From Candidatus Thorarchaeota archaeon (GTDB lineage Archaea > Asgardarchaeota > Thorarchaeia > Thorarchaeales > Thorarchaeaceae): a DNA stretch of 32,000 nt. The position numbers and the translations under genes are program-made. Positions 1 through 32,000 of this stretch are shown here, piece after piece (position 1 is the first letter of the stretch; the number at the start of each line of letters is the position of its first letter). The stretch lies in the NCBI GenBank assembly GCA_003345555.1, contig PRDJ01000077.1:30001-62000 (forward strand), read 5' to 3'. Under the pieces are notes generated by a model. That model searched no databases and had not been told where the DNA came from. It saw nothing but the letters and a program-made list of their open reading frames with translations.

Positions 1-1
1 C

Positions 2-232
2 GTACCTGTGCAAGTCACCTGTGGCGCTGGAGACGCATGGAATGCTGGGAATATCTTTGGAACCCTTGTCCATTTGGAGACCAGAGACCGTCTTCTCCTG
101 TCGAACTCCGTTGCGGCTATGTATGTCTCTTCTGCTTCAGCGGTCCATCCAACCCGCGAGGCATTGATTCAGTTCCTTAAGGGGAAGCAGGCACTGTCAA
201 ACATCGGCAGTAAGCTAATTAGAGCTCTCTGA
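2..232 (+). CDS. PfkB/ribokinase-family carbohydrate kinase, C-terminal fragment (starts before the window)
   Basis: Open frame from the window edge; VTCGAGDAWNAG matches the PfkB anion-hole motif (T-x-GAGD-x-F/W-x-A-G). Confidence 0.75.
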   Translation, partial: VPVQVTCGAGDAWNAGNIFGTLVHLETRDRLLLSNSVAAMYVSSASAVHPTREALIQFLKGKQALSNIGSKLIRAL

Positions 233-277
233 CAAGACTGCTTTGGTGTTTGCAGGTCAGAGGAAGGAAGTGCTCCC

Positions 278-1210
278 TTGGCGCTTGAACATATCCTTGG
301 TAAGTTGAAGTACGACGGTTCCGTCACCGGGTTTGCACTTCTGACCAACAATGGTCAACCCTTTCTGTCGTTCTCCTTACCAGAGGAATTGCTTCCTCAG
401 ATCCATGGTGCCTTGAGAATTCACGCATCATCACTGAAACTAGTCAATGTGATGACGAAACAAGGAACTCTGATTCTGGCCCGAGTGGATCCAAACTGGA
501 TACTTGCTGTACACTTCTCAGAGGAATCACTGGGGTCGGCTCTTCAGAAGACTAAAACGGTTGTGGATATGCTCGAGCAAGTCGAGCTGCCTCCGCCACC
601 ATCCAACATTGCCACCGAGTTGCCTGTCGAGGCTGTGGAGGAAGTGCCTGAAGACCTCAGCCCCGAGATTGAGAAGATGAAGGCTGCCACGATAACAGAG
701 GGTGCAGAGGTAGGTGTACCCGAGGCAGGTCTCGTTGTTGTCAGGCATGGCTGTATCGTGCACCACGGACCAAGGTACACCGATGCCGTTACTCTCGGCT
801 CACCTCTCAATCGACTGCTCAAAGACAAATCGGCAAAGTTCGCGGTCGACGTGCTCTTGCTGGCGGATGAGAAACGGACTGTCTTCAAGATATCACAAGA
901 ACTCGGAAAATCTGTTGAAAGAGTGATTGATGTCGTGACTTGGTGTGTATCGGAGCGTATCTTGACCGTTGAATGTCCGGAAGAGCAGGAAGCCGGGGTT
1001 GCACCGATAGTTGAATACCCATTATATGAGGGCGACCTGAAAAAGGCCAAGAAAGAGCATCAGGCAGTCCTCATGTTATGCGACGGTGTTCACACTGTTC
1101 AGGACATAGCAGCGGAGCTCAACATACCATACTTCAAGGCATTGCAGAGCATCGTACCATATCGAGGAAAGACTGTCAAGTTTGTTGGCAAAGACAAAGC
1201 TGGCGAATGA
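278..1210 (+). CDS. Roadblock/LAMTOR/MglB-like domain + Pro/acidic linker + two winged-helix domains (paralogue A)
   Basis: N-terminal ~100 aa follow the Roadblock helix/strand pattern (LEHILGKLK / VTGFALLTNNGQPF / LKLVNVMT-GTLILARV-WILAVHF / LGSALQKTK); two wHTH-like units (LLLADEKRTVFKISQELG, LMLCDGVHTVQDIAAELN). Clear paralogue at 3134..4135. Confidence 0.7.
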   Translation: MALEHILGKLKYDGSVTGFALLTNNGQPFLSFSLPEELLPQIHGALRIHASSLKLVNVMTKQGTLILARVDPNWILAVHFSEESLGSALQKTKTVVDMLEQVELPPPPSNIATELPVEAVEEVPEDLSPEIEKMKAATITEGAEVGVPEAGLVVVRHGCIVHHGPRYTDAVTLGSPLNRLLKDKSAKFAVDVLLLADEKRTVFKISQELGKSVERVIDVVTWCVSERILTVECPEEQEAGVAPIVEYPLYEGDLKKAKKEHQAVLMLCDGVHTVQDIAAELNIPYFKALQSIVPYRGKTVKFVGKDKAGE

Positions 1211-1233
1211 CGAACAGAACGGAGGACTAACAA

Positions 1234-1740
1234 ATGGGCGTCAAAGGTTCATTGGCTTGGAGTTTGAAAATCCCGAAAGTATCGAAACCACTGTTTCAGG
1301 CAACTTACAGAGAACTCATGAATTACCTGATCCAGACAAGTTCAAACGTTGATGAAATCAATCAGAAACTGAAGGAGATAGGCTTCAAGGTCGGAGAATA
1401 TCTCCTTATGGACTATGCAGACAGGATAAGGAAGCATGCAGTAGCATTTCATCAATTTGCATCGACTCTTCAGCTAGCATACAAAGTGAATTCGGGACAG
1501 GAGTTTACTTCTATTTGGATCAGCGATGACCGTCGCGTGGTCAAGTTTACAGACGTAAAGTGCCCGATATGCGAAGGCGTTGAAATCAAGGACTTGCCCG
1601 GACTGCAATACTGCAATCTTGTGAGCGGCGTATTCCAAGCTGTTCTTACGCTTAGAGGTTTCAATGGCGATTCCTATCAGGAGTCTTGCAGGGCTGTTGG
1701 AGACGACGCATGCACATGGACTATCAAGTTGCTTGAGTGA
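1234..1740 (+). CDS. Bet3/TRAPPC3-like protein with V4R cysteine motifs
   Basis: LFQATY-x2-L...N-x-DEINQKLKEIGFKVG and LQYCNLVSGV resemble Bet3; CPIC, YC and QESCRAVGDDAC are V4R-type motifs; SD-like GGAGG upstream. Confidence 0.85.
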   Translation: MGVKGSLAWSLKIPKVSKPLFQATYRELMNYLIQTSSNVDEINQKLKEIGFKVGEYLLMDYADRIRKHAVAFHQFASTLQLAYKVNSGQEFTSIWISDDRRVVKFTDVKCPICEGVEIKDLPGLQYCNLVSGVFQAVLTLRGFNGDSYQESCRAVGDDACTWTIKLLE

Positions 1741-1860
1741 CGATACTGACAGTCTGCGGTCTACTATCACAGAATGCCCCCTTGCCAATAACAGCTAACA
1801 TATCTTAAAATGGACTAATCACAAGGCAGTGTATGCCACGTGCCTTAGGGTGAGTCAGGA

Positions 1861-2376
1861 TTGGGTCAGTTCATTGGTACCCTTGTGGGTCTGATTGTAG
1901 GATTTGTGCTCTCTTTCGCTATTCTTACGCTCGGGACCGTAATGCCTGAAGCGCTGATTCCTTCTAGCATAGTGGCAGATTTTCTTTCGCGTCCCGACCT
2001 AGAAGTGAGGCTGGCTATCGCAGGCACAGTGATGTATCCCTCGGCATTTGGATCCATAAGCCTTGGCGGCATGCTTCACATGGGAGCCAGTAGTGCAACA
2101 GTATTGATGTTCCTAGCATGGGGCACGGGTGGGCTTGTTGCCGGATTGCTGGCACGCGGACCAGTACAGGGAATATTCGCGGGCGTTTTTTCAGTCATAC
2201 TTGGTGCCCTTCTAATCTGGCTCTTGGTTTTCTTCATTCAGACCCCTGACTTCAGTGCAATCTTTGGTACAGGGTCTATGCTCATCTTGCAGGCCGCATT
2301 TGAAGGCACAGTCTACCCTCTCATCGGCGTTGGAGTCGGAGGTCTTTTGGGGGGCGCTATTAGTAGAGAGCGCTGA
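1861..2376 (+). CDS. Multi-pass membrane protein of unknown function
   Basis: 171 aa, about 4-5 Gly-rich hydrophobic segments; TTG start; TATA-like TCTTAAAA near 1803-1810. Confidence 0.7.
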   Translation: MGQFIGTLVGLIVGFVLSFAILTLGTVMPEALIPSSIVADFLSRPDLEVRLAIAGTVMYPSAFGSISLGGMLHMGASSATVLMFLAWGTGGLVAGLLARGPVQGIFAGVFSVILGALLIWLLVFFIQTPDFSAIFGTGSMLILQAAFEGTVYPLIGVGVGGLLGGAISRER

Positions 2377-2399
2377 CCCATTCAGTCGTGGAAAGCTGT

Positions 2400-2972
2400 C
2401 TATTGAGCGTCGGACCCCGTCAGTTGCCTTCCACACTCGGAACAAAAAACCGGCCTCGATTTGAAGACTGCACCACACTCACAGACAGTCTCAATCTTCT
2501 CTGGTGGCGTAGCCTCGCCGCTTGTTAACCACGCTGCAGACAGACTAATCGGAATGCAGCTAAGGAGAGACAGAGGTGACGCAATCAGGCTTGATGTGAA
2601 CAGAGTGATTAAGTCCATGTTTCTGCTCGGCGAATACCAAAATGATGGATTGGTGATGAGGATGGAGCCCGTCGCCAACAACGCGATAAACAGGCCGACC
2701 CATAATGCGCTTCGAAGTGCATTCCAGTTCGGTTTCGAAAACGGGGCAATTGCGAGACCTATGATAAGCCACGCTACTACGTACTGACCTGAGACTGCCC
2801 AGTCCATTAAGCCCAATAGTGTTGATTGAAGCAGAACGCTCCCTGACAAAAGGAACGATACGGTATTGAACGGTTCGGGGTAAACAGTCTGAGGTAGCGC
2901 TCGCAGCCACACTATGAAGAGGCATCCCACTACTGCTCCAACCAAACCTCCGAGCGCATTTCTCATTTCCAT
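2400..2972 (-). CDS. Membrane protein with C-terminal zinc ribbon
   Basis: About 4 hydrophobic segments then CECG-x7-FCSECG; start moved from 3011 to ATG 2972 (or 2966) because the track's N-terminal residues look non-coding. Confidence 0.75.
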   Translation of the reverse strand: MEMRNALGGLVGAVVGCLFIVWLRALPQTVYPEPFNTVSFLLSGSVLLQSTLLGLMDWAVSGQYVVAWLIIGLAIAPFSKPNWNALRSALWVGLFIALLATGSILITNPSFWYSPSRNMDLITLFTSSLIASPLSLLSCIPISLSAAWLTSGEATPPEKIETVCECGAVFKSRPVFCSECGRQLTGSDAQ

Positions 2973-3133
2973 CCCATACCGAGACGACTGGTCACGCGTC
3001 CGGCACTGCATGAGCTCTTAACACTTTTCGTCCATAAGCATATCAATCACCACAATGCTTTTCTGACCAGCCTGGGAAATATCATCGAAAACACGTGGGA
3101 CCGGCTATGCGAAGTGACTCGAGGTGTTGATTC

Positions 3134-4135
3134 ATGGCGGGAGACCTTGAACGTGCTCTCTCCAAGCTAAGAACTGACAATCAGGTGTTAGGGTATTCCC
3201 TGATGACCAAAGTGGGGCGGCCGTTTATCAGCTTCTCGTTTCCCGGTGACATATTCCCGCGTGTAAAAGATAGCATCAAGCTCTACAAGTCGGATCTTCG
3301 GCTCATGACGATTGACACCGAGAAAGGACTTGTGGTGTTGTCACCAGTGGATGCCAACTGGATTCTGACCGTGCTTTACATACACGAGCTTCAGCTGGGG
3401 GTGGCAATAGCCAAGACAAAGAATGTCCTTAGGTTGCTGGAAGGGATTGAATTGCCTCCTCCCCCTGAAGACTTCGAAGACTCTGCTGAAGCCAACCTTC
3501 AGGTACTTCAGAGCATTGCGATCAAAGCGGCGTCGACAGCCCCTGGGGCATCCGAAGCGGTGATGACATCCCCTCAGGCCAAGTCTTTGCCTTCTGTTGC
3601 ACCTGCCCCGAAGGCCGCGATTGAGAAGCAATCGCCGAGTCCAGATGATTTCTATGTTCTGCCTACCACGATTCCGAAAAAGGGCGAGACCCATTCTAAT
3701 GCTCTCTCTCTTGACTCTGTACTTTGTTCAGAGATGAAGAAGGTATACAGAAACTTCGGATTCGACGTGCTGATGTTGGTCGATGGGAGCCGCACGGTCA
3801 CACAGATAGCCGAGTCCATGTTTCAGCCAAACGAAAGAGTCGCGTCATTCCTGAAGTGGGCTGCATCAAAAGGCATCGTGGCCTTACCTGAAGCCAAGGA
3901 AAGAACTCCCGAGGAGAAGGCGAGTCCTTCGATGGGCCGCTTTGTGAAGTGTCCCCTGTTTGAGGGAGACCTGAGCAAGGTCAAGAGCGAGGATGTCCCG
4001 ATATTGAAGCTCTGTGATGGTTCAAGGACACCAGAGAAAATTGCAGAGGAGACAGGCAGTCCACAAGTGAGAGTCATTCAAGTGCTGGCGCTGTATCGTC
4101 GACTCGGGCTCAAAATGATCGGAAAGGCAGTCTAG
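3134..4135 (+). CDS. Roadblock-like domain + linker + two winged-helix domains (paralogue B)
   Basis: Collinear with 278..1210: PF(I/L)SFS, VD-x-NWIL, KTK-x-V, ELPPPP, PL(F/Y)EGDL-x-K, LCDG-x2-T; SD-like GAGGTG upstream. Confidence 0.75.
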   Translation: MAGDLERALSKLRTDNQVLGYSLMTKVGRPFISFSFPGDIFPRVKDSIKLYKSDLRLMTIDTEKGLVVLSPVDANWILTVLYIHELQLGVAIAKTKNVLRLLEGIELPPPPEDFEDSAEANLQVLQSIAIKAASTAPGASEAVMTSPQAKSLPSVAPAPKAAIEKQSPSPDDFYVLPTTIPKKGETHSNALSLDSVLCSEMKKVYRNFGFDVLMLVDGSRTVTQIAESMFQPNERVASFLKWAASKGIVALPEAKERTPEEKASPSMGRFVKCPLFEGDLSKVKSEDVPILKLCDGSRTPEKIAEETGSPQVRVIQVLALYRRLGLKMIGKAV

Positions 4136-4167
4136 ACGTTCTTAGATTGCTCAAAGAGGTTTGATAA

Positions 4168-4641
4168 TTGCCAAAGATAGAGAATCCACTTCTTCTCAGC
4201 CTCTACTCCAAGGTCGTTGACCAGGTTCTGTCAGAGACCAACAACATCGACGAAGCGAATCGACGGCTGAGAGACATAGGACGCGAGGTGGGATCCCAGA
4301 TATACCTCACGACGGACATTGTGGATAGGACCAAGGATACTATTACGACTCGTGAAGATGTTTCGAAGCTGGTTGAAATCATCTTCAGGGTGCTCTACGA
4401 CAAGAAGCCAACGTTAGTAGACATGGAGACAGCTCGTGGCTCAGTCAGAGTAACGGACGAGTCGTGTATCTGGTGTCAGGACGTTCATCTCGAAGGCATG
4501 GCCGGTTTCGGCTACTGCGAAGTTTTCAGTGGCATATTGGAGTCCCTGCTAGCTTTCAAGGGTGTCGAGGCCAAGGTCTTCCAGGAAATGTGCCGTGCAA
4601 CAGGCGCTGACAGCTGCGAATGGAATATCCGCTTGCAGTAG
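4168..4641 (+). CDS. Bet3/V4R-fold protein (paralogue of 1234..1740)
   Basis: NNIDEANRRLRDIGREVG helix, CIWC, GYCEVFSG, QEMCRATGADSCEW; TTG start with SD-like AGAGG. Confidence 0.85.
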   Translation: MPKIENPLLLSLYSKVVDQVLSETNNIDEANRRLRDIGREVGSQIYLTTDIVDRTKDTITTREDVSKLVEIIFRVLYDKKPTLVDMETARGSVRVTDESCIWCQDVHLEGMAGFGYCEVFSGILESLLAFKGVEAKVFQEMCRATGADSCEWNIRLQ

Positions 4642-4702
4642 GAAAACCATCACAAAGAACTTAACGCTGGATGAGAAACAGCCGCTGGCGAGAGAGACTC
4701 CT

Positions 4703-5251
4703 ATGTCGAAGACTCCAGAGGCTGTTCCTTGGTGGCTGGGCAAGCTAAAAGAACGCGACCTCATGAGGGCATTTTTTGCAAAGACGTGGACCAAAATCGG
4801 CAACAGAGTCGAAGTTATGTTTCCCGACAAAGTCCGCGATCTCTATTACAGCGCTGGTCGGCTCGCGGGTCTTGAGACGCAACGCGAGTATTTCAAACTG
4901 GGGAGGCAGAGGCCGCCCGGTGACTTCAAGGGCATTGTTGAGTTTATCAAGATGGCGCTCTCTATCCTGATAGTTCCATTCGGCGATGTCAAAATATCTC
5001 GCCTCTACAAGCTATTCTTGGATGAAGAGGCAGTGATAGAGATTCAAGACAACCCATATGCATCAGGCATGAAAACACCCGAGCCTTCGTGTTACTTCTT
5101 AAGAGGCTTCATCGAAGCCGTCCTCGAGTATCTGACTGATTCCAACAAGATTGTGTACGAGAAACTCGTCGTTGTAGAGGAGACATGCATGGCTTCAGGC
5201 GGCGAGGCATGCACCTTCAAGATGACACTGACCTACCCTGCCCGCGGCTGA
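4703..5251 (+). CDS. V4R/Bet3-fold protein (third, more divergent)
   Basis: QDNPYA, PSCYFLRGFIEAVL, EETCMASGGEACTF motifs; start placed at ATG 4703 (MSKTP), since the track start at 4562 overlaps the previous gene. Confidence 0.8.
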   Translation: MSKTPEAVPWWLGKLKERDLMRAFFAKTWTKIGNRVEVMFPDKVRDLYYSAGRLAGLETQREYFKLGRQRPPGDFKGIVEFIKMALSILIVPFGDVKISRLYKLFLDEEAVIEIQDNPYASGMKTPEPSCYFLRGFIEAVLEYLTDSNKIVYEKLVVVEETCMASGGEACTFKMTLTYPARG

Positions 5252-5377: not shown

Positions 5378-6148
5378 ATGAGGCAAAGCATGAGCGGAAG
5401 TCAGGCCAGAAAAGCGTTCGTTCTGCTACCGCTCTTGCTCTTTTTCTCCGGGATGCTGAGCGTCTATCTGTTTCAACTTGGAGTCAATTCCCATGATTTA
5501 TCCTTCCAGAATTCCGACACGCATCCCGTCGCAATCCAGTTGGCGGACAGCGTAGTTCTGGTTGCTCCAATTGGCGCCGGAACATCCATTGTCCTTGGGG
5601 CCGGACTACTGCAATCCTCGAACGGTCAGTTTGTCTTAGCCGTAGCCATCGGAACAGTGATTGCTCAGGCTAGGCAACAGGAGCGTACTTCCCGACTTCG
5701 TGAGCGTATCCTCGATGAGGTCTCATCCAGCCCCGGTATACATCTGAGGGAAATGCACCGAATCCTTGGTTGTGCGATGGGCGCACTGCAGTACCACGTG
5801 AAGCAGCTCGAAGAACAAAGGTTCATCACATCTGTCAGGAGTGGCAACACAAGACACTTCTTCCCATCTGAGTTCTCATGTGATGAGCAGGTTCTGAAGC
5901 TGACAGCATTGATACGGAATCCAATCATCAGTTCAATAATCATGCAGTGCTTGGCCAGTGACCGGACGACCCAAGCGGACCTTAGCAGGCTCCTGTCAAT
6001 TGACAAGAGCTTGGTCTCATACTACGTAAGTCACCTGATAAGAGAGGATGTATTGAACACGATTCGTGTCTTTGGCCGCGAAAAGCCGCTGACGGTGACG
6101 GATTGGGCAAGGTATGCTCTTTCGACAGGGGAATCGGTGGTGCAGTAG
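5378..6148 (+). CDS. Membrane-tethered transcriptional regulator with two wHTH domains (COG3398-like)
   Basis: Two N-terminal hydrophobic stretches, then RERILDEVSSSPGIHLREMHRILGCAMGALQYHVKQL and TQADLSRLLSIDKSLVSYYV. Confidence 0.75.
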   Translation: MRQSMSGSQARKAFVLLPLLLFFSGMLSVYLFQLGVNSHDLSFQNSDTHPVAIQLADSVVLVAPIGAGTSIVLGAGLLQSSNGQFVLAVAIGTVIAQARQQERTSRLRERILDEVSSSPGIHLREMHRILGCAMGALQYHVKQLEEQRFITSVRSGNTRHFFPSEFSCDEQVLKLTALIRNPIISSIIMQCLASDRTTQADLSRLLSIDKSLVSYYVSHLIREDVLNTIRVFGREKPLTVTDWARYALSTGESVVQ

Positions 6149-6251: not shown

Positions 6252-6998
6252 ATGCCGAAGGAATCTACAACGACCAAGGATGATCTGAGCGAAGTCGATA
6301 CCGAAATATCGGAAGGCGTTCAGCACGCTGTCCGTCTTGTTAACGTGTCCCGCGTCTACGCAATGGGCAACACAGAGGTAGTTGCCCTGAGTGATGTGAG
6401 TCTGGATGTGACCTCTGGCGAGCTTGTGGTTGTTTCAGGGCCATCAGGTTCTGGAAAGACAACTCTTCTCAATATGATTGGTGGTCTGGACTATCCATCT
6501 AGCGGAAGAGTCCTACTCATGGACGTCCCGATCGGCGACTATGATGAATCTTTTCGGGCCACCTTTAGACTCACCAATACTGGTTTTGTCTTTCAAAGCT
6601 ACAACCTGATTTCCACGTTAACTGCCATTGAGAACGTTATGTTTCCCATGCAGTTGTCGAACAAGGATTCCAAAGAGATACGCAAAGATGCCTCGATGCT
6701 CCTTGAGCGCGTGGGGCTGTCAGATCGGCTCAATCATCTTCCTTGGCAACTGAGTTCGGGCGAACAACAGCGGGTCGCCATGGCTCGTGCAATGGCAAAT
6801 GATCCGCCCATCGTGATTGCCGATGAGCCCACAGCTAACTTGGACTCCGAAAGCGCAGAAATGATTCGTAGTCTGCTAATCAGCCTAAACAATGCAGGAA
6901 AGACTGTATTTGTGGTGTCCCATGATGAGGATATAACTGGCCTGCCAAGCGCGCGGCATCTCAGGATGGACAAGGGAGTGCTGTCTGCCAATGCGTGA
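6252..6998 (+). CDS. ABC transporter ATP-binding protein, LolD/MacB family
   Basis: Walker A GPSGSGKT, signature LSSGEQQRV, Walker B VIADEPT, H-loop VSHD. Confidence 0.95.
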
Positions 6999-8841
6999 CC
7001 TAGACTACGCATCGACCGACTTGAAGCGCCGACCATTCAGGTCCACGACCGTGCTGCTGTCAATGACAACTGTTGTTGCGTTCACAACCTTTCTTTTCCT
7101 TTTCGCGAACACGCTCTTGGACGTTACATCTGCTGTGACATCTCTCGGACTGAGTTCTCCACTTGGAGTCCTCTATGGCGCGTTCATTTGGACAACACTG
7201 GTGCTCGTCCTCATTCTAGGAGCAGTTGTTGTATCGAGTACGGTTTCATTGGAGATGGTGAGTCGGAGGAAAGACATAGGACTCATGAAATCAATCGGTA
7301 CTCTAGTGGACACGATTTTTGACCATTTCATGGCTCAGGCCGTTACGCTATTGCTAGCCAGCGTGGTACTCGGAGTAGCATGCGGCACACTAATGTACTT
7401 GGCAGGTATGCTCTGGCTCGCATATTCCATTCCGGCTCTTCAATTCTCATTCAACTACCCCCTCTACCAAATCGGAGGGCTCGCTCTGATCTATGTCTTT
7501 GTCGGCTACTTCGCCGCCCAGAAACCTATCTACGACGCAGTACAGGAGTCACCCATCTCTGCCCTGAGTCCTGATACAACTCTGAGGGTCGGACCTGCAG
7601 GTTTCCTTAGTGGATTCGGCCTTTCTTTCAGGATTGCTGCGAAGGCTACAGGGCGCCGGGTCAAGGGATCTAGGAGAGTAGTGGTCTCTCTCTTCCTAAG
7701 CGTCTCTCTTGCTTCCGTGCTTTGGATTGGCGGAGGGGTTGTCGAGAATACAACAGACGCCTATGTTGCTAGGGCAATGGGCAACAATGTCGTTGCTGTC
7801 GGCCACCCTGATGTACTGTCCGAGTACTATAGCGCGTATTCGCTTCAAGGCGCCTCGCTAAATGAGAATGTGACTTTTCTTAACAGCTCGTACGTTGTAC
7901 CCTCTTCTCTCATTCAACTGCTTGCAAATGCCCCCGGCGTGATTCAGATCGAGTCGCGGTTTGTCGTGTCCACCAGCGTCAAGGAAGGTCCTGCCATTGT
8001 CTGGAATCCGACCTTGGCACGATACGAACGAATCGGCAACGACCGAGTCTCGCAGGCGATTTTGGTGGGCGTGAATTGGTCACACACTATATCGACTTGG
8101 TATTACGAAGGAGACCCAGTGAGTAAACCAGATGAAGTCTGGATTGGAGGAAAAATGGCGACATCGATGTACGTGGATCCTCTGGTCCAGACGCTGCAAG
8201 TCCAAGGAGCTTCTCTGAGTGTCAAAGGAATTGCATTTGACATCCTCAATGGAGGGATGGTGGCCATTATGGACCTCTCCTCAATGCTGTCTCTCTGGAA
8301 TGTCACAGGAGTGAATCTGGTCCTGGTTCAGTTGTACTCCTATGATGAGTCCTACATCTCGCAGATTCGGACTATGGCTAGTGCTTTCGGCATGGACGTG
8401 TACAGACAGCAAGATGTGCTCTTGGGCAATGAAAGAACAATAGGGGGCATCTGGCTATTGATGCAGCCTCTTCCTGTGATGGCCCTTTTCAGCGCATTCT
8501 TGAGTCTGATGTACTTCCTTCTTGTCTCCGTTTTTGGCAGATTCCGTGACTACATCATAATGCGGTCAGTCGGTGCTAAACCCTCATTTGTTGCTAAGAC
8601 CATGATTGCCGAAGGACTTGGTATTGGATTGAAGGCGGGACTGCCAGCTGCCCTCGTTGCCGCCTTGGTCAGCGTCTATGGCCTCATACCTGATGCGACA
8701 GTGCCATCACTGCTCTATCTTCCGGGCATGATATTCCTCATCATGTTGTCCTTAATTGGGACAGTCCTGCTCGCGTCCATACCCGTGTACTTGATATTCA
8801 TAGGCCGATCCGACCTGAGGGTATCAGAGTTCTCGGCTTGA
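6991..8841 (+). CDS. ABC transporter permease, FtsX/MacB family (two FtsX-like units)
   Basis: [13 protein letters not shown] and [13 protein letters not shown] FtsX-type motifs, multiple TM helices, large extracytoplasmic domain; overlaps the ATPase stop. Confidence 0.85.
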
Positions 8842-12831: not shown

Positions 12832-13905
12832 CTAGGAATATGCATCTAAGGTCTCCAATACCTGCTCTATGATGCTCTCATTCGTTTCAATGACAGATTC
12901 ATTTGTCTCTCTCTCGATTTGGTCATCTAGCTTGGGCAAAGGATGTTTCGCCATGCCCGCTAGGCTCGCTTCTATGCAAGGACCAATCATCATCGGATTG
13001 TATCCTCCCTCAAGTACCCAGAATGACCCTGCACAATTGAGTCTCTCGACAAGTTTCGTCACAGTACTCCCCAAGTACCAGTACACCTTTGAGGTCACGT
13101 CCATATTGCCAACGGGATCGGCATAGTGTGAGTCATATCCAGCTGACACAGCAAGAATCTGGGGGCTGAATCTCTCAATGGCGGGGACTACCACTCTGTC
13201 AATCGCTGAGATGTAGGATGAATCAGGCGTCATGTCCACCAAGGGGATGTTGATCTTGGTGCCTATTGCTTCCCCATGACCCACTTCCATGTAGTGACCC
13301 AAGCCGAAGCTTTCGTAATCGTATTCATGTATCGAGACGATCTGCACATTTGGATCCGAATAGAATATCTCAGCAGTACCGTTTCCGAAGTGGTCATCAA
13401 AGTCGAGTATGGTGACCTTTGCTACTCCGAGGTGTTTCGTTGCATGGCGAACCGCGATGGCTACGTTGTTGAAGAAGCACAGGCCTGACGGAGTTGATGT
13501 CGATGCATGGTGTCCGGGAGGTCTCATTAGTGAGAACGCATGGAGGGCCTTTCCTTTGGCCACAAGCTCCGCTGAGCGCATAGCACCGCCAACGGCTAAT
13601 AGTGCCGTCCTGAACAGCTCCGGGCTGGCGTAAGCGCTCTCGCCGAGTTGACCCGTTCCGATCTCTGTCATCAGCTTGATAGAGTCGACTAGGTACGGGC
13701 TATGGACAAGAAGCGCAGCTCTCTCTTTGGCACGCGGAGACCTGATGCAAAGCAGGGTCTCTAGGATTCCTCTGTTTCTTAGATACGATTCAGCCATCTG
13801 CGTTCTTAACGGGCTTTCGAATGATTCGATATTGGGTCTAGGAAAAGGGGCCAGATGAGTGTTTGAGTCCGGATGGGAAATGAAGGCTATGCTGTCTCCA
13901 CGCAT
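12832..13905 (-). CDS. Histone deacetylase-family (class II-like) amidohydrolase
   Basis: RPPGHHA, GLCFFNNVAIA, LDFDDHFGNGT, SAGYD, VLEGGY. Confidence 0.93.
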   Translation of the reverse strand: MRGDSIAFISHPDSNTHLAPFPRPNIESFESPLRTQMAESYLRNRGILETLLCIRSPRAKERAALLVHSPYLVDSIKLMTEIGTGQLGESAYASPELFRTALLAVGGAMRSAELVAKGKALHAFSLMRPPGHHASTSTPSGLCFFNNVAIAVRHATKHLGVAKVTILDFDDHFGNGTAEIFYSDPNVQIVSIHEYDYESFGLGHYMEVGHGEAIGTKINIPLVDMTPDSSYISAIDRVVVPAIERFSPQILAVSAGYDSHYADPVGNMDVTSKVYWYLGSTVTKLVERLNCAGSFWVLEGGYNPMMIGPCIEASLAGMAKHPLPKLDDQIERETNESVIETNESIIEQVLETLDAYS

Positions 13906-20926: not shown

Positions 20927-21469
20927 ATGGTGTCAGTGTCTACGAACTTCGACTTCATGAGGAAAGTCGTTATGATTGGCGCGGGCGGAAGTGGGAAGAC
21001 CGCACTCGTCAATCGCTTTCTCACTCAGAAGTTCTCGGAGCAGTACATTGTAACCATAGGGTCCCAGTTTGCAGTCAAGACAGTCACTGTGGAGAATTTC
21101 AACGGGCACAGCGTGATTGTAAAGCTCCTTGTTTGGGATTTGGCGGGTCAAGAGCGTTTCGATTTCATTCGCAGTAGTTACTACAAAGGATCCAAAGGAG
21201 CGCTATTGGTTTACGATACGACTCGAAGGAACACTTGGGCTGAGTTGCCCAAATGGATTGAAGAGACTGACAACGCGCTCGGACAGCGAATACCGATTAT
21301 ACTCCTTGCAAACAAGGTTGACTTGGCGAACGAGCGCGTCATTACTCCTGAGATGGGAAAAGCATTCGTCCAAGAGCACGGTCTTGTTGGTTATCTGGAA
21401 ACGAGTGCACTTAACGGACAAAACGTAGAAGAAGCATTTACGCTCCTAGCGAGGTCAAGCATTTCCTAG
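20927..21469 (+). CDS. Rab-like small GTPase
   Basis: G1 GAGGSGKT, G2 YIVTIG, G3 WDLAGQE, G4 NKVD, G5 ETSA; RabF-like segments present. Confidence 0.93.
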   Translation: MVSVSTNFDFMRKVVMIGAGGSGKTALVNRFLTQKFSEQYIVTIGSQFAVKTVTVENFNGHSVIVKLLVWDLAGQERFDFIRSSYYKGSKGALLVYDTTRRNTWAELPKWIEETDNALGQRIPIILLANKVDLANERVITPEMGKAFVQEHGLVGYLETSALNGQNVEEAFTLLARSSIS

Positions 21470-27187: not shown

Positions 27188-28327
27188 ATGCCCGTAGCAA
27201 TGCTTCTGATTGACTGGGACAGCAAGATAGGGGCCGTGTTGAAAGCAAAGGTCCCCAATGATTTCGCTGACTACTACAAAGAAGACTTGAACACCGAAAT
27301 CATGCGTATCTTTACGTCGCACGCTATGGGTGATGCCACAGCCGGTTTCTCATCTCTTAGTGTTCGAATTGGCGGCGAGGAGTATAGCGTTGCATCATAC
27401 TACACAGGCATTCTCCGTGAAGAGGAGCAATACTGTGTGTCACTGTTATTGACACCATCTGAAGATCCAAAGATGTACGAGGCAGCAATAACGTCTGTTG
27501 TTTCTCCGCTAACCAATGCGGTTGTATCGATGACAGATTCCGAGTTCCAAACAGAACTCGAGAACACCTACCGCAGAATAATCAGACTTGCTGGCATGAC
27601 AGACGAGTCGCGCTTGGCCCGCCTGTTTGCTGACGAAGTCTCAAGGGCTGTTTTTCCGAAACTCTGGAAGGGAGGAATATCCAAGGAGGACCTTGAGGAA
27701 TGGCTCAAGATGGTCACAGGTCTTCCGAGCGTAAGCGTGGATTCAATACTAGCGCCGTTCGAGGAGCTAGGTATCATCAAGAGCGACTGGGTAGACGAAA
27801 TAGGCAGAACCTGTGTCTTTATGATAAAGGATCTTGAGGTCTTCCGTGCTCCACCTCTCCAAGCTATGGAGTCTGCAAGTACTATGGTGGATCCCGAGCT
27901 CGCAGCAGAATACAAGGGCGAGGTGCTGGAATTTCTGACAGAATGGCAGAAGACACCGGACGATACAGTTGCCGTCGCTCAAGTTCTTGCAGACCCTGAC
28001 TGCTACGATATGCTGAACGAGCTGAGGCGTAGGCCAGCAAACATGTCCGAGCTAGAGGCCACACTGGGCATTCCCCCCAAGGAACTGAAAGAAGCAGTCC
28101 AGACTCTGAAGAAGTACAGAATTGTCTCCGAGAAACGGAGAAAGGGGTCCTCTGGCGAATTTGACAAGTGGCTGTTTCTTCTCAACGACATTCGGGTGCG
28201 GTTGTTCTTCCCCGAATACTTCCTTCAATCTCTAATCGCTGATCTTGAAAAGACGCCTGACGATCCAAAAGCACGCGAAATGGTGCATCATCACTTGCGG
28301 CTGTTGCGAGACAATTTCCCACGCTGA
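27188..28327 (+). CDS. Longin/uDENN-like domain + winged-helix domains (NPRL2-like architecture)
   Basis: IDWDSKIGAVLKAKVP opening hairpin, VASYY and YCVSLLL strands; wHTH-like ISKEDLEEWL...ILAPFEELGII and NMSELEATLG...AVQTLKKYRIV. Confidence 0.6.
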   Translation: MPVAMLLIDWDSKIGAVLKAKVPNDFADYYKEDLNTEIMRIFTSHAMGDATAGFSSLSVRIGGEEYSVASYYTGILREEEQYCVSLLLTPSEDPKMYEAAITSVVSPLTNAVVSMTDSEFQTELENTYRRIIRLAGMTDESRLARLFADEVSRAVFPKLWKGGISKEDLEEWLKMVTGLPSVSVDSILAPFEELGIIKSDWVDEIGRTCVFMIKDLEVFRAPPLQAMESASTMVDPELAAEYKGEVLEFLTEWQKTPDDTVAVAQVLADPDCYDMLNELRRRPANMSELEATLGIPPKELKEAVQTLKKYRIVSEKRRKGSSGEFDKWLFLLNDIRVRLFFPEYFLQSLIADLEKTPDDPKAREMVHHHLRLLRDNFPR

Positions 28328-30460: not shown

Positions 30461-32000
30461 ATGATTCACAATACTTTCCTTGTCTATGGGCGAAAGATCC
30501 TCGCCTCATCTCAGTACTGGCCAACTACGGTGACTCCTGATGAAATCAACGAGTTCATCACAACGAGGGCGGACCTTCTCGCAGAGCATGGGGGTTTCAT
30601 GGATCTTCCGCTTATTGTTGGAGACAAGAAATTCCTTGCCCGGTCTGTCGAATCTGACATGCTGCTCATCTTTGTCAGTGACACGGGAGAAGATGAGCAT
30701 GTCATCTCCGAGAGACTAGACTCTGCAGCCAAGGAGCTAGGAAAGAAAATCAGAGCAAGCGGAGTTCGTGGTGTCGCGAAGCAGTACGCGTCACTCATTG
30801 AACCCATGATTACGACTCGACTCAAGATTGCCCTCGTGGGAGAGGGCGGAGTCGGAAAGACCACAACTCTGCAACTCCTCTTAGGCAACAGTCCTCCCCT
30901 ATCATACGTGCCGACGATTGCGCTGAACCTTGAAACGGTCGAGAATATTCGCTTCGGCAGCTATTCTCTTGTCCTCTGGGACTTCGCCGGTCAAGAGCGT
31001 TTCCGGACTCTGTGGAAGTTCTACTTTCATGGCGCTGATGTAATATTCTTGGTGTGTGATTCTACCTTGCGCAACGTGATTATCAGCAAGGACATACTGA
31101 AACTAATCAGACGCGACGCGCCCAAGGTACCTGTCTTTGCATTGGCGAACAAACAAGACAAGCCTAATGCAATGAAGCCCGAAGTCATTCAGAAGATTCT
31201 CGGCGTTCCCACATATCCTATGGTGGCAATCGACAGAGAGCGCAGAGATGAAATGCTCAAGATACTCTTGACGGCTGCTGCTCAGTACGTCGGTGTAACG
31301 TTACCTGACGTACCCACATCAGAGCTATTCAGATTCAGTGACCAAGCTGTAAAGGGTGCGGTGAAGGGCAAGGCCGCTGCTCGCGAACACAAAGAGCCGG
31401 AAGAAGCGCCGCCGGAGGAAGTCGTAGAGGAAGTCCTGATTGACGAGCAGGGAAATGTGGTTGAGGCTTCAGAGGAATATGAGGTAGTCGATGAAGTAGT
31501 AGAGGTCCTCGATGAGCCGTCGGAGACTGCGCATGTTCCAAGCCCAGCATCTGTAGAGCAGGCGCCTCGGGAAGAGGGCGAGGCAGCGGAGGCTGGCTTT
31601 GACATCGCAACCAGCGGCGCGGAATCCTTGGCAGAGGAAACAGGGCCAATGGTTAGCATGGATGCTGAAGAGCGACGCGAGGACTTGTTCTCGGCCTCTG
31701 AGAGAATCAGCGGTTCTTCCGACACGATGTCGGCGACAGTTGCTAAACAGCTGATTTCCGATGCCCTCGATGCAGACGATATAGTTGCCGCAGAGATAGA
31801 TCGTATTCCTCGTGAACATCTGGGTGCAGCAGTCGACGCCATCCGGTGCGATGAGACTGTCTCATCAGAACCTGAGAAGGAAAGCGTGCACGCCGTAGGC
31901 GCAAAAGCTATGCGCGATTTAGACAAAGTCTTAGGTCCCTCCGCAAGCAAGGAAACGAGTTCTCCAGAAGTCCGCAAGGTGTCTGAGAGCCCGATGGACG
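30461..32000 (+). CDS. Longin-like domain + Arf-like small GTPase + long acidic disordered region (3' end outside window; absent from ORF track)
   Basis: Hand translation from ATG 30461 is open to the window end (513 codons): MIHNTFLVYGRKILASSQYW..., GEGGVGKT (30839), YVPTI, WDFAGQERFRTLWKFYF, NKQD (31148), then Glu/Asp/Ala/Ser-rich sequence. Confidence 0.9.
   Translation, partial: MIHNTFLVYGRKILASSQYWPTTVTPDEINEFITTRADLLAEHGGFMDLPLIVGDKKFLARSVESDMLLIFVSDTGEDEHVISERLDSAAKELGKKIRASGVRGVAKQYASLIEPMITTRLKIALVGEGGVGKTTTLQLLLGNSPPLSYVPTIALNLETVENIRFGSYSLVLWDFAGQERFRTLWKFYFHGADVIFLVCDSTLRNVIISKDILKLIRRDAPKVPVFALANKQDKPNAMKPEVIQKILGVPTYPMVAIDRERRDEMLKILLTAAAQYVGVTLPDVPTSELFRFSDQAVKGAVKGKAAAREHKEPEEAPPEEVVEEVLIDEQGNVVEASEEYEVVDEVVEVLDEPSETAHVPSPASVEQAPREEGEAAEAGFDIATSGAESLAEETGPMVSMDAEERREDLFSASERISGSSDTMSATVAKQLISDALDADDIVAAEIDRIPREHLGAAVDAIRCDETVSSEPEKESVHAVGAKAMRDLDKVLGPSASKETSSPEVRKVSESPMD

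Follow-up and report, generated by a model that had tools for sequence, protein, structure and literature searches.

A duplicated gene pair for Roadblock-winged-helix and TRAPPC3-like proteins in Thorarchaeia, a candidate archaeal GTPase-regulator or sensor complex

Most Asgard homologues of trafficking and nutrient-signalling proteins are orphan parts: as published surveys stress, they rarely lie in operons, and their partners can hence not be guessed (10.1101/2020.10.19.343400; PMC10933270). Structures have been published both for the TRAPPC3 protein of Thorarchaeota (Thor-TRAPPC3) and for Asgard Roadblock proteins (PMC10933270). The 32,000-nt stretch of Candidatus Thorarchaeota archaeon analysed here (assembly GCA_003345555.1, contig PRDJ01000077.1, positions 30,001 to 62,000; referred to as the window) carries at positions 278-5251 a locus in which a gene for a protein with a Roadblock domain and two winged-helix (WH) domains, termed A, stands directly upstream of a gene for a Bet3/TRAPPC3-like protein, termed B, and this pair is present twice (A1-B1 and A2-B2). 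The locus raises the question of whether Bet3-fold proteins were joined to platforms of the Roadblock/longin class before eukaryotes, or whether they are ligand sensors feeding a winged-helix output. A first-pass annotation of the window had reported the pair twice in the same order, and all seven open reading frames (ORFs) of the locus exist as it described them. It had also stated that it knew of no description of this pairing, and none was found in the openly searchable literature: the literature searched does not mention that Thor-TRAPPC3 has a Roadblock-WH neighbour, that the pair is duplicated, or that the second WH domain of A (WH2) is linked to the Bet3-like gene across lineages, subscription-only papers lying outside the search. 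The pairing of these known parts is real and deeply conserved and, as far as could be seen, undescribed, and the module is regarded here as a candidate archaeal GTPase-regulator or sensor complex.

Conservation and inheritance of the gene pair

A1 and A2 are full-length paralogues with 34% identity (E 1e-56), and B1 and B2 are paralogues with 29% identity (E 1e-33). The spacer within each pair is short, 23 nt from the A1 stop codon to the ATG of B1 and 32 nt from the A2 stop codon to the TTG of B2, and the Shine-Dalgarno-like motifs that had been reported together with these spacers were located as GGAGG, about 10 nt upstream of the ATG, and AGAGG, upstream of the TTG.

The distribution of the pair was surveyed in a sample of 400 Asgard genomes of the phylum, in which the family of the window was labelled f1 and its sister family f2. 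The Pfam model TRAPP (PF04051) matched in 78 of 85 f1 genomes, almost always with two matches ~2.9 kb apart, and A1-like matches were obtained in 82 of the 85, nearly always two, each directly upstream of a TRAPP match. The gene order A1-B1-TM1-TM2-A2-B2-C-HTH-ABC-FtsX, with TM2 on the opposite strand (see Table 1 for the individual genes), was identical in 15 f1 loci from 15 genera, and the V4R-domain gene C followed B2 in every one of these examined loci. A1 is broken in one of the 15. A single A-B-C set is present in f2, where C follows the single B. In maximum likelihood trees, the A protein of f2 joined A2 (support 100/100) and the B protein of f2 joined B2 (support 89/86). The A and B trees are thus congruent, indicating that the pair was duplicated and inherited as a unit. 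In genome G323 (L038:1538-2435), the sequence of the A1 orthologue is divided between two frames and an in-frame TAG lies in the B1 match, so that either copy 1 of this genome is decaying or the assembly is in error.

Beyond Thorarchaeia, a 252-aa Roadblock-WH2 protein is encoded directly upstream of B in all six family genomes of Freyarchaeia. Its gene and B share 4 nt in five genomes, whereas an 8-nt spacer separates them in G117 (CP147778.1, Ca. Freyarchaeota), which also carries a second, unlinked pair. In family f14, probably Hermodarchaeia according to the label of one cluster member, the gene immediately before that of the B homologue (169 aa; E ~1e-43 to the B profile) encodes a 160-aa protein, in which a small CxxC domain is joined to WH2 by a proline-rich linker, in 16 of 16 loci (L089:3153-3635 on the minus strand, and L092-L106 inclusive). 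A separate ~270-aa Roadblock-WH1 gene, WH1 being the first of the two WH domains of A, lies elsewhere in the f14 genome beside the gene for glutamyl-tRNA synthetase (GluRS; L053-L058), and the A architecture of this family looks split in two genes. Borrarchaeum shows the order B-B′ followed by a gene for a 224-244-aa protein with a WH2-like stretch, and family f15 carries tandem B genes with no A neighbour.

The WH2 segments of the four lineages (Thorarchaeia, Freyarchaeia, f14 and Borrarchaeum) can be aligned and share an invariant P...L.LC(D/N)G...I core. Since WH2 is found beside B in all four lineages, WH2 is the neighbour of the Bet3-like gene that stays constant between lineages, and the Roadblock domain is a frequent, not obligatory, module on the WH2 chain. 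The module was found in these four lineages and is patchy among the genomes sampled. Conservation of the pairing in relatives, which the first-pass annotation had set beforehand as a test, holds across f1, f2 and the other Asgard lineages. We consider it very probable that the A-B module is a functional unit, and we lean, with less confidence, towards A and B binding each other. The crystallised Thor-TRAPPC3 now has a neighbour of a GTPase-platform fold that has been kept over deep divergences, was duplicated together with it and shows translational coupling in places; concrete candidate partners can be named, and a pre-eukaryotic partnership between Bet3 proteins and such platforms becomes directly testable.

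Folds and relatives of the encoded proteins

B1 and B2 scored 34.2 and 34.3 bits, respectively, with PF04051 (gathering cut-off 27), and they are the only PF04051 genes in the 2.28-Mb assembly. The best solved relatives of B1 were the Thorarchaeota TRAPPC3 structures 7YH3 (SMTZ1-45; E 5.9e-23) and 7YH2 (AB25; E 1.9e-21), and matches of B to eukaryotic TRAPPC3 structures ranged from E 1e-7 to 1e-5. The PF04051 scores and the Thor-TRAPPC3 match bear out the Bet3 identity that had been proposed for both proteins. Thor-TRAPPC3 is a homodimer with internal cavities, each zinc ion being held by four cysteines (Tran et al. 2024, PMC10933270), and Tran et al. proposed ligand binding and suggested ligand transport for it (PMC10933270). 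B1 and B2 are equal to Thor-TRAPPC3 in length and share its conserved cysteines, by which zinc is bound in the crystal; in the alignment of B proteins, CxxC at 110/113 and C160 are invariant and C127 nearly so. B1 has a conserved N-terminal MGxKG..W extension, which is missing from B2. By its N-terminus and the missing extension, B2 seems to be of the type orthologous to the crystallised Thor-TRAPPC3. The published work on Thor-TRAPPC3 dealt with the protein alone, and the upstream Roadblock-WH gene, the paralogue pair and the V4R neighbour are unmentioned in it. The cluster differs from TRAPP in that the longin subunits (Bet5/Trs23/Trs20) are not encoded in it.

The third V4R gene that had been placed after copy 2 was confirmed, the C product scoring 40.9 bits with Pfam V4R (PF02830; cut-off 31) at residues 158-221 of the long ORF form, with a weak match to MJ1460 in addition. 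Judging from start context and orthologue matches, the likely start of C is ATG 4704 rather than GTG 4562, so that C begins 62 nt after B2, and a purine-rich stretch precedes its start codon, as in A1-B1 and A2-B2. V4R is a prokaryotic family thought to be ancestral to Bet3 (PMC2253512). Freyarchaeial genomes also encode KaiC-like ATPases of ~415-420 aa with a C-terminal V4R domain (L087:3851-5101, L088:2498-3760, L091:3001-4248), where V4R is put to a different use, in its classic sensor-type role.

The AlphaFold2 model of A1, built on 32 family sequences, had a mean pLDDT of 85, with values >90 in the domains, including residues 1-100; the domain borders are given in Table 1. The modelled residues 1-103 are arranged as helix-strand-strand-helix-strand-strand-strand-helix. 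This domain aligned over 101 residues with LAMTOR2 (1sko_B; Z 12.9; root-mean-square deviation (rmsd) 2.2), reached Z 11-12.7 with Asgard Roadblock crystals, MglB and MglC, and gave a Roadblock match of E 1.4e-6 in Foldseek. On the model, the N-terminal domain of A is a Roadblock fold. The reading of A1 and A2 in the first-pass annotation, Roadblock plus two winged helices, is therefore upheld by the model and the fold searches and not by Pfam, as Robl_LC7 (PF03259) gave no match for A1 or A2 at E up to 1 and none among the 32 A family members at E up to 0.01. Some A orthologues carry the COG-type label ‘Roadblock/LC7/MglB family’ from the Joint Genome Institute (JGI).

Searches of A against Pfam and NCBIfam generated only sub-threshold helix-turn-helix (HTH) matches, and phmmer generated zero sequence matches in PDB. 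The relatives of A found by phmmer in 1.84 billion cluster representatives form 22 clusters, all of one narrow family. The sub-threshold Pfam matches included HTH_47 in 24 of the 32 family members and, falling at WH2, DUF742 (PF05331), which scored 19.7 bits in A1 (cut-off 27) and matched 6 of the 32 members at E up to 0.01. Several positions are conserved in and around the Roadblock domain. The ELPPPP motif directly after it is invariant in A1, A2 and f2 and reads ELPAP in Freyarchaeia, and could serve as a hinge or a proline-motif ligand. Arg69 of A1 (window 482-484, LARVD, at the end of strand 4) is invariant in A1 orthologues, while the aligned Pro71 of A2 (window 3344-3346, LSPVD) is Pro in every A2 and f2 sequence, and GxPF precedes strand 2 in both A1 and A2.

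NPRL2 and NPRL3 (yeast Npr2 and Npr3) are subunits of GATOR1/SEACIT, and GATOR1 is a GTPase-activating protein (GAP) for RagA/Gtr1. With Foldseek, the best PDB match of the whole A chain was NPRL2 (9o5a_H, E 2.8e-6), and among 550,000 Swiss-Prot models NPRL2 occupied ranks 1-4 (aligned 15-302; Q8WTW4, E 9.2e-7). When the C-terminal half was modelled separately, its top ten Foldseek matches were all NPRL2, NPRL3 or Npr2 chains. The named AFDB clusters were mostly NPR2/NPRL3, ArsR and MarR entries also being present. In an exhaustive structural scan, WH1 aligned with residues 164-236 of NPRL2 (8fw5_B) at Z 10.3 (rmsd 2.1, 73 residues aligned) and with yeast Npr2 (8adl_S) at Z 9.5, whereas DNA-binding winged helices reached 7.6 at most. 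Identity in the structural alignments of A with NPRL2 was only 7-13%. By the models, then, A as a whole resembles NPRL2/NPRL3 of GATOR1 most closely, rather than any TRAPP subunit.

In both A and NPRL2/NPRL3, an N-terminal platform domain of the longin/Roadblock class is followed by winged helices, and A1 and A2 are two paralogues, like NPRL2 and NPRL3 as a pair. The platform domain of NPRL2 has an Arg finger and a GP motif (PMC12290439), and the Arg present only in A1 recalls NPRL2 as against NPRL3. Unlike NPRL2/NPRL3, A has no match to Pfam NPR2 or NPR3. The A1 model opens with a helix (2-11) and has a single C-terminal helix (85-100), in contrast to the longin topology of the NPRL2 type, which starts with a strand and ends with two C-terminal helices, and the NPRL2 alignments on A begin only at residue 14-15. 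A DEPDC5-like partner, as in GATOR1, is not evident. The window also encodes, at 27188-28327 on the plus strand, a 379-aa NPRL2-like longin protein with no Pfam match and no sequence similarity to A1. This protein is probably a member of the NPRL2-like family already published for Thor genomes by Liu et al. (10.1101/2020.10.19.343400).

Candidate roles of the module

We propose that the locus consists of two ancient sister copies of a two-gene module in which A would work with the zinc-binding B, and that in copy 2 the V4R protein C would join A2 and B2. B, or B together with C, would form Bet3-type dimers with a ligand cavity, and these dimers would dock on WH2 of A. The Roadblock domains would dimerise, possibly as an A1/A2 heterodimer, and the Roadblock platform would regulate or recruit a Ras-superfamily GTPase encoded elsewhere, the Bet3/V4R subunits supplying a small-molecule, lipid or redox input. 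A complex prediction for A1 and B1 (own alignments, without controls) scored 0.00 in two runs and speaks neither for nor against binding.

Roadblock and NPRL2-type platform folds are GTPase regulators. Among the fetched loci, a GTPase gene stands beside the module only in f2 and in a single f15 genome, in the latter downstream of B. The f2 gene encodes a small GTPase (Ras/Arf/SRPRB-like; L048:6004-6714, plus strand, G311), lies next to A, 375 bp from A-B-C and transcribed divergently, and is followed by a gene for a tetratricopeptide repeat (TPR) protein that passes the Pfam SNAP model (L048:6802-7800, plus strand). The GTPase connection of the module is circumstantial, and small-GTPase regulation as its output is a tentative though quite possible assignment. 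In mycobacteria, the Roadblock protein MfpD is the GAP and the DUF742 winged-helix protein MfpC the guanine nucleotide exchange factor (GEF) of one GTPase (PMC9769811, PMC11343762). A resembles such conservons (CvnA-D; MfpB-E) in having the Roadblock and DUF742 winged-helix types, here both in one chain. It differs from them in that its DUF742 matches stay below the cut-off and are confined to a minority of members, in the rarity of an adjacent GTPase gene, and in the absence of a kinase gene from the examined flanks, while conservons are without a Bet3/V4R partner. Two candidate clients are encoded in the window, each >15 kb from the module: a Ras/Rab-family small GTPase at 20927-21469 on the plus strand (163.6 bits with Pfam Ras) and, at 30461-31999 on the plus strand, a longer protein that runs off the window and has an Arf-like GTPase domain at aa 119-251.

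Several observations weigh against the proposed GTPase-regulating A-B complex. No GTPase was found as a conserved neighbour in the fetched flanks of the f1, Freyarchaeia, f14 and Borrarchaeum loci, and the pairing persists without the Roadblock domain in f14 and Borrarchaeum. A Roadblock, NPR2 or above-threshold DUF742 sequence match to A was absent from the Pfam and PDB searches, and no fused A-B or WH2-B protein was found among the longer relatives of B or WH2, the word-limited searches making this weak evidence. WH2 is mildly basic (median isoelectric point (pI) 9.2), V4R domains classically sense ligands and feed HTH outputs (PMC2253512), and Thor-TRAPPC3 was seen as a homodimer alone, with ligand binding proposed for it (PMC10933270). 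The first-pass annotation had read the locus as a GTPase regulator formed by Bet3 and Roadblock-wHTH proteins; the folds, the homology and the conserved pairing agree with this reading, whereas the constancy of WH2 as the partner and the lack of a conserved GTPase neighbour do not.

The main alternative, a serious one that we hold to be somewhat less probable than the proposed complex, is a one-component regulator split over several genes, in which WH2 of A, perhaps together with WH1, would bind DNA and B and C would be trans-acting sensors switching A. The sensed input would be a hydrophobic ligand or a redox change at the zinc-cysteine site, the Roadblock domain would only dimerise, and the regulator would act on the module itself and, within f1, on the membrane-protein genes and the HTH-ABC-FtsX genes as well. 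The typical fusion or coupling of V4R to HTH or signalling outputs (PMC2253512) fits this explanation, as does the name ‘predicted hydrocarbon binding protein’ given by JGI to B homologues, and the invariant neighbour of B in the four lineages is a winged helix, not a Roadblock domain. In known V4R regulators (MsvR; the sensor domains of XylR/DmpR/PoxR), a V4R domain with cysteine-bound zinc is combined with an HTH output and senses a ligand or redox state (PMC2253512, PMC10933270). The arrangement here differs from the MsvR type, as the V4R/Bet3-like protein and the winged helix are separate proteins and the winged-helix protein A also carries a Roadblock domain and the NPRL2-like WH1. Weak matches to the V4R domains of MsvR and BchJ were obtained, but those to MsvR (NF053755) scored 15.7-20.4 bits against a cut-off of 220 and covered only the V4R C-terminus. 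DNA binding by A is favoured by weak ArsR/TrmB/MarR-type matches of WH2, by its pI and by the ArsR and MarR entries among the AFDB clusters. Against it, WH1 fits the protein-protein winged helix of NPRL2 clearly better than DNA-binding ones, hydrophobic residues make up most of the putative WH2 recognition helix in the alignment of all lineages, and WH1, like the Freyarchaeial WH2, is neutral or acidic. Inverted repeats were absent from all three spacers on the promoter side, those before A1, A2 and the HTH gene. The ABC exporter and membrane proteins kept beside the module in f1 speak for such a regulator, and their absence outside f1 speaks against it.

The proposed GTPase-regulating complex can also be put in a more specific form, which we regard as a long shot: an NPRL2/3-like Roadblock heterodimer of A1 and A2, with the catalytic-type Arg only in A1, loaded via WH2 with dimers of B1, B2 and C. 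If true, this Asgard complex would bring parts of two eukaryotic GTPase regulators, GATOR1 and TRAPP, together in a single platform responsive to a ligand or lipid, and would sit near the common root of the longin/Roadblock-based GAP and GEF machines.

A still less probable explanation, close to the proto-TRAPP-like system of the first-pass annotation, is a forerunner of TRAPP itself, in which B1, B2 and C would combine with Roadblock proteins that take the place of the longins Bet5, Trs23 and Trs20 in a rod acting as a Rab-like GEF. By Pfam and crystal structure, TRAPPC3 has its closest prokaryotic counterparts in B1 and B2, Tran et al. report a longin-TRAPPC3 fusion in a Heimdall sequence (PMC10933270), three Bet3/V4R paralogues with two Roadblock proteins echo the inventory of the TRAPP core, and the genome has Rab-like GTPases, such as the one at 20927-21469. 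Because the constant Bet3 neighbour is WH2 and not the Roadblock domain, the picture of Roadblock proteins replacing the TRAPP longins is weakened, and WH2 is without a TRAPP counterpart. The plan of A fits NPRL2/3 and not Bet5, Trs23 or Trs20, the patchy occurrence of the module in the four lineages also argues against an ancestor of TRAPP, and a linked GTPase was not found. Least probable of all is mere co-regulation, for instance with B and C carrying or chaperoning a hydrophobic ligand or lipid for the membrane proteins and A as an unrelated scaffold held beside them by operon inertia, for although Thor-TRAPPC3 has internal cavities and a suggested role in ligand transport (PMC10933270) and membrane genes lie inside the f1 cluster, these genes are restricted to f1, the adjacency with its 4-nt overlaps survives very deep divergence and independent rearrangements on the A side, and A and B were co-duplicated with congruent trees.

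Genes of the locus and its surroundings

The coordinates of the genes and of the A1 domains are collected in Table 1. The HTH, ABC transporter (ATP-binding cassette) and FtsX genes were set outside the core because they are found beside the module only in f1.

Table 1. Genes of the locus with its downstream context, and segments of A1 (positions in the window, or residues where marked aa)
Feature	Position	Strand	Description
A1	278-1210	+	310 aa; TTG start; from translation; start position shared by orthologues
B1	1234-1740	+	168 aa; Bet3/TRAPPC3-like; ATG start
TM1	1861-2376	+	Glycine-rich multi-pass membrane protein
TM2	2400-3011	-	Membrane protein with C-terminal zinc ribbon; probable start 2966
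A2	3134-4135	+	333 aa; paralogue of A1; Roadblock-linker-WH1-WH2 plan as in A1
B2	4168-4641	+	157 aa; Bet3/TRAPPC3-like; TTG start
C	4704-5251	+	V4R-domain protein; 182 aa from the likely ATG 4704
HVO_0163/MarR-type HTH regulator	5378-6148	+	Pfam; context, outside the core
ABC ATPase	6252-6998	+	Pfam; context, outside the core
FtsX-type permease	6991-8841	+	Pfam; context, outside the core
A1 Roadblock domain	aa 1-103		AlphaFold2 model
A1 ELPPPP motif	aa 103-108 (584-601)		Invariant
A1 disordered acidic linker	aa 112-149		AlphaFold2 model
A1 WH1	aa ~155-233		AlphaFold2 model, fold search
A1 WH2	aa ~243-306		AlphaFold2 model

Two membrane genes had been noted between the copies, and both were found there, TM1 on the plus and TM2 on the minus strand; they are kept between the pairs only in f1. 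As to function, the Atlas gave only Asgard hypothetical-protein clusters for TM1 and TM2, plus a zinc ribbon for TM2. TM2 also generated weak zinc-ribbon matches in Pfam, and the matching Atlas record begins at its residue 16.

A gene for a PfkB-family sugar kinase (window 1-232, plus strand) ends 45 nt before A1 and is kept in at least two genera (L052:9124-10233; L034:1213-2286). This leaves little space for a promoter of A1, and the kinase gene and A1-B1 may therefore share a transcript. A histone-deacetylase-family gene lies at window 12832-13905, 8 kb downstream of the module, and another lies directly upstream of the Freyarchaeial A′-B-B cluster (L049:7240-8016); the presence of genes of this family near both clusters may be a coincidence.

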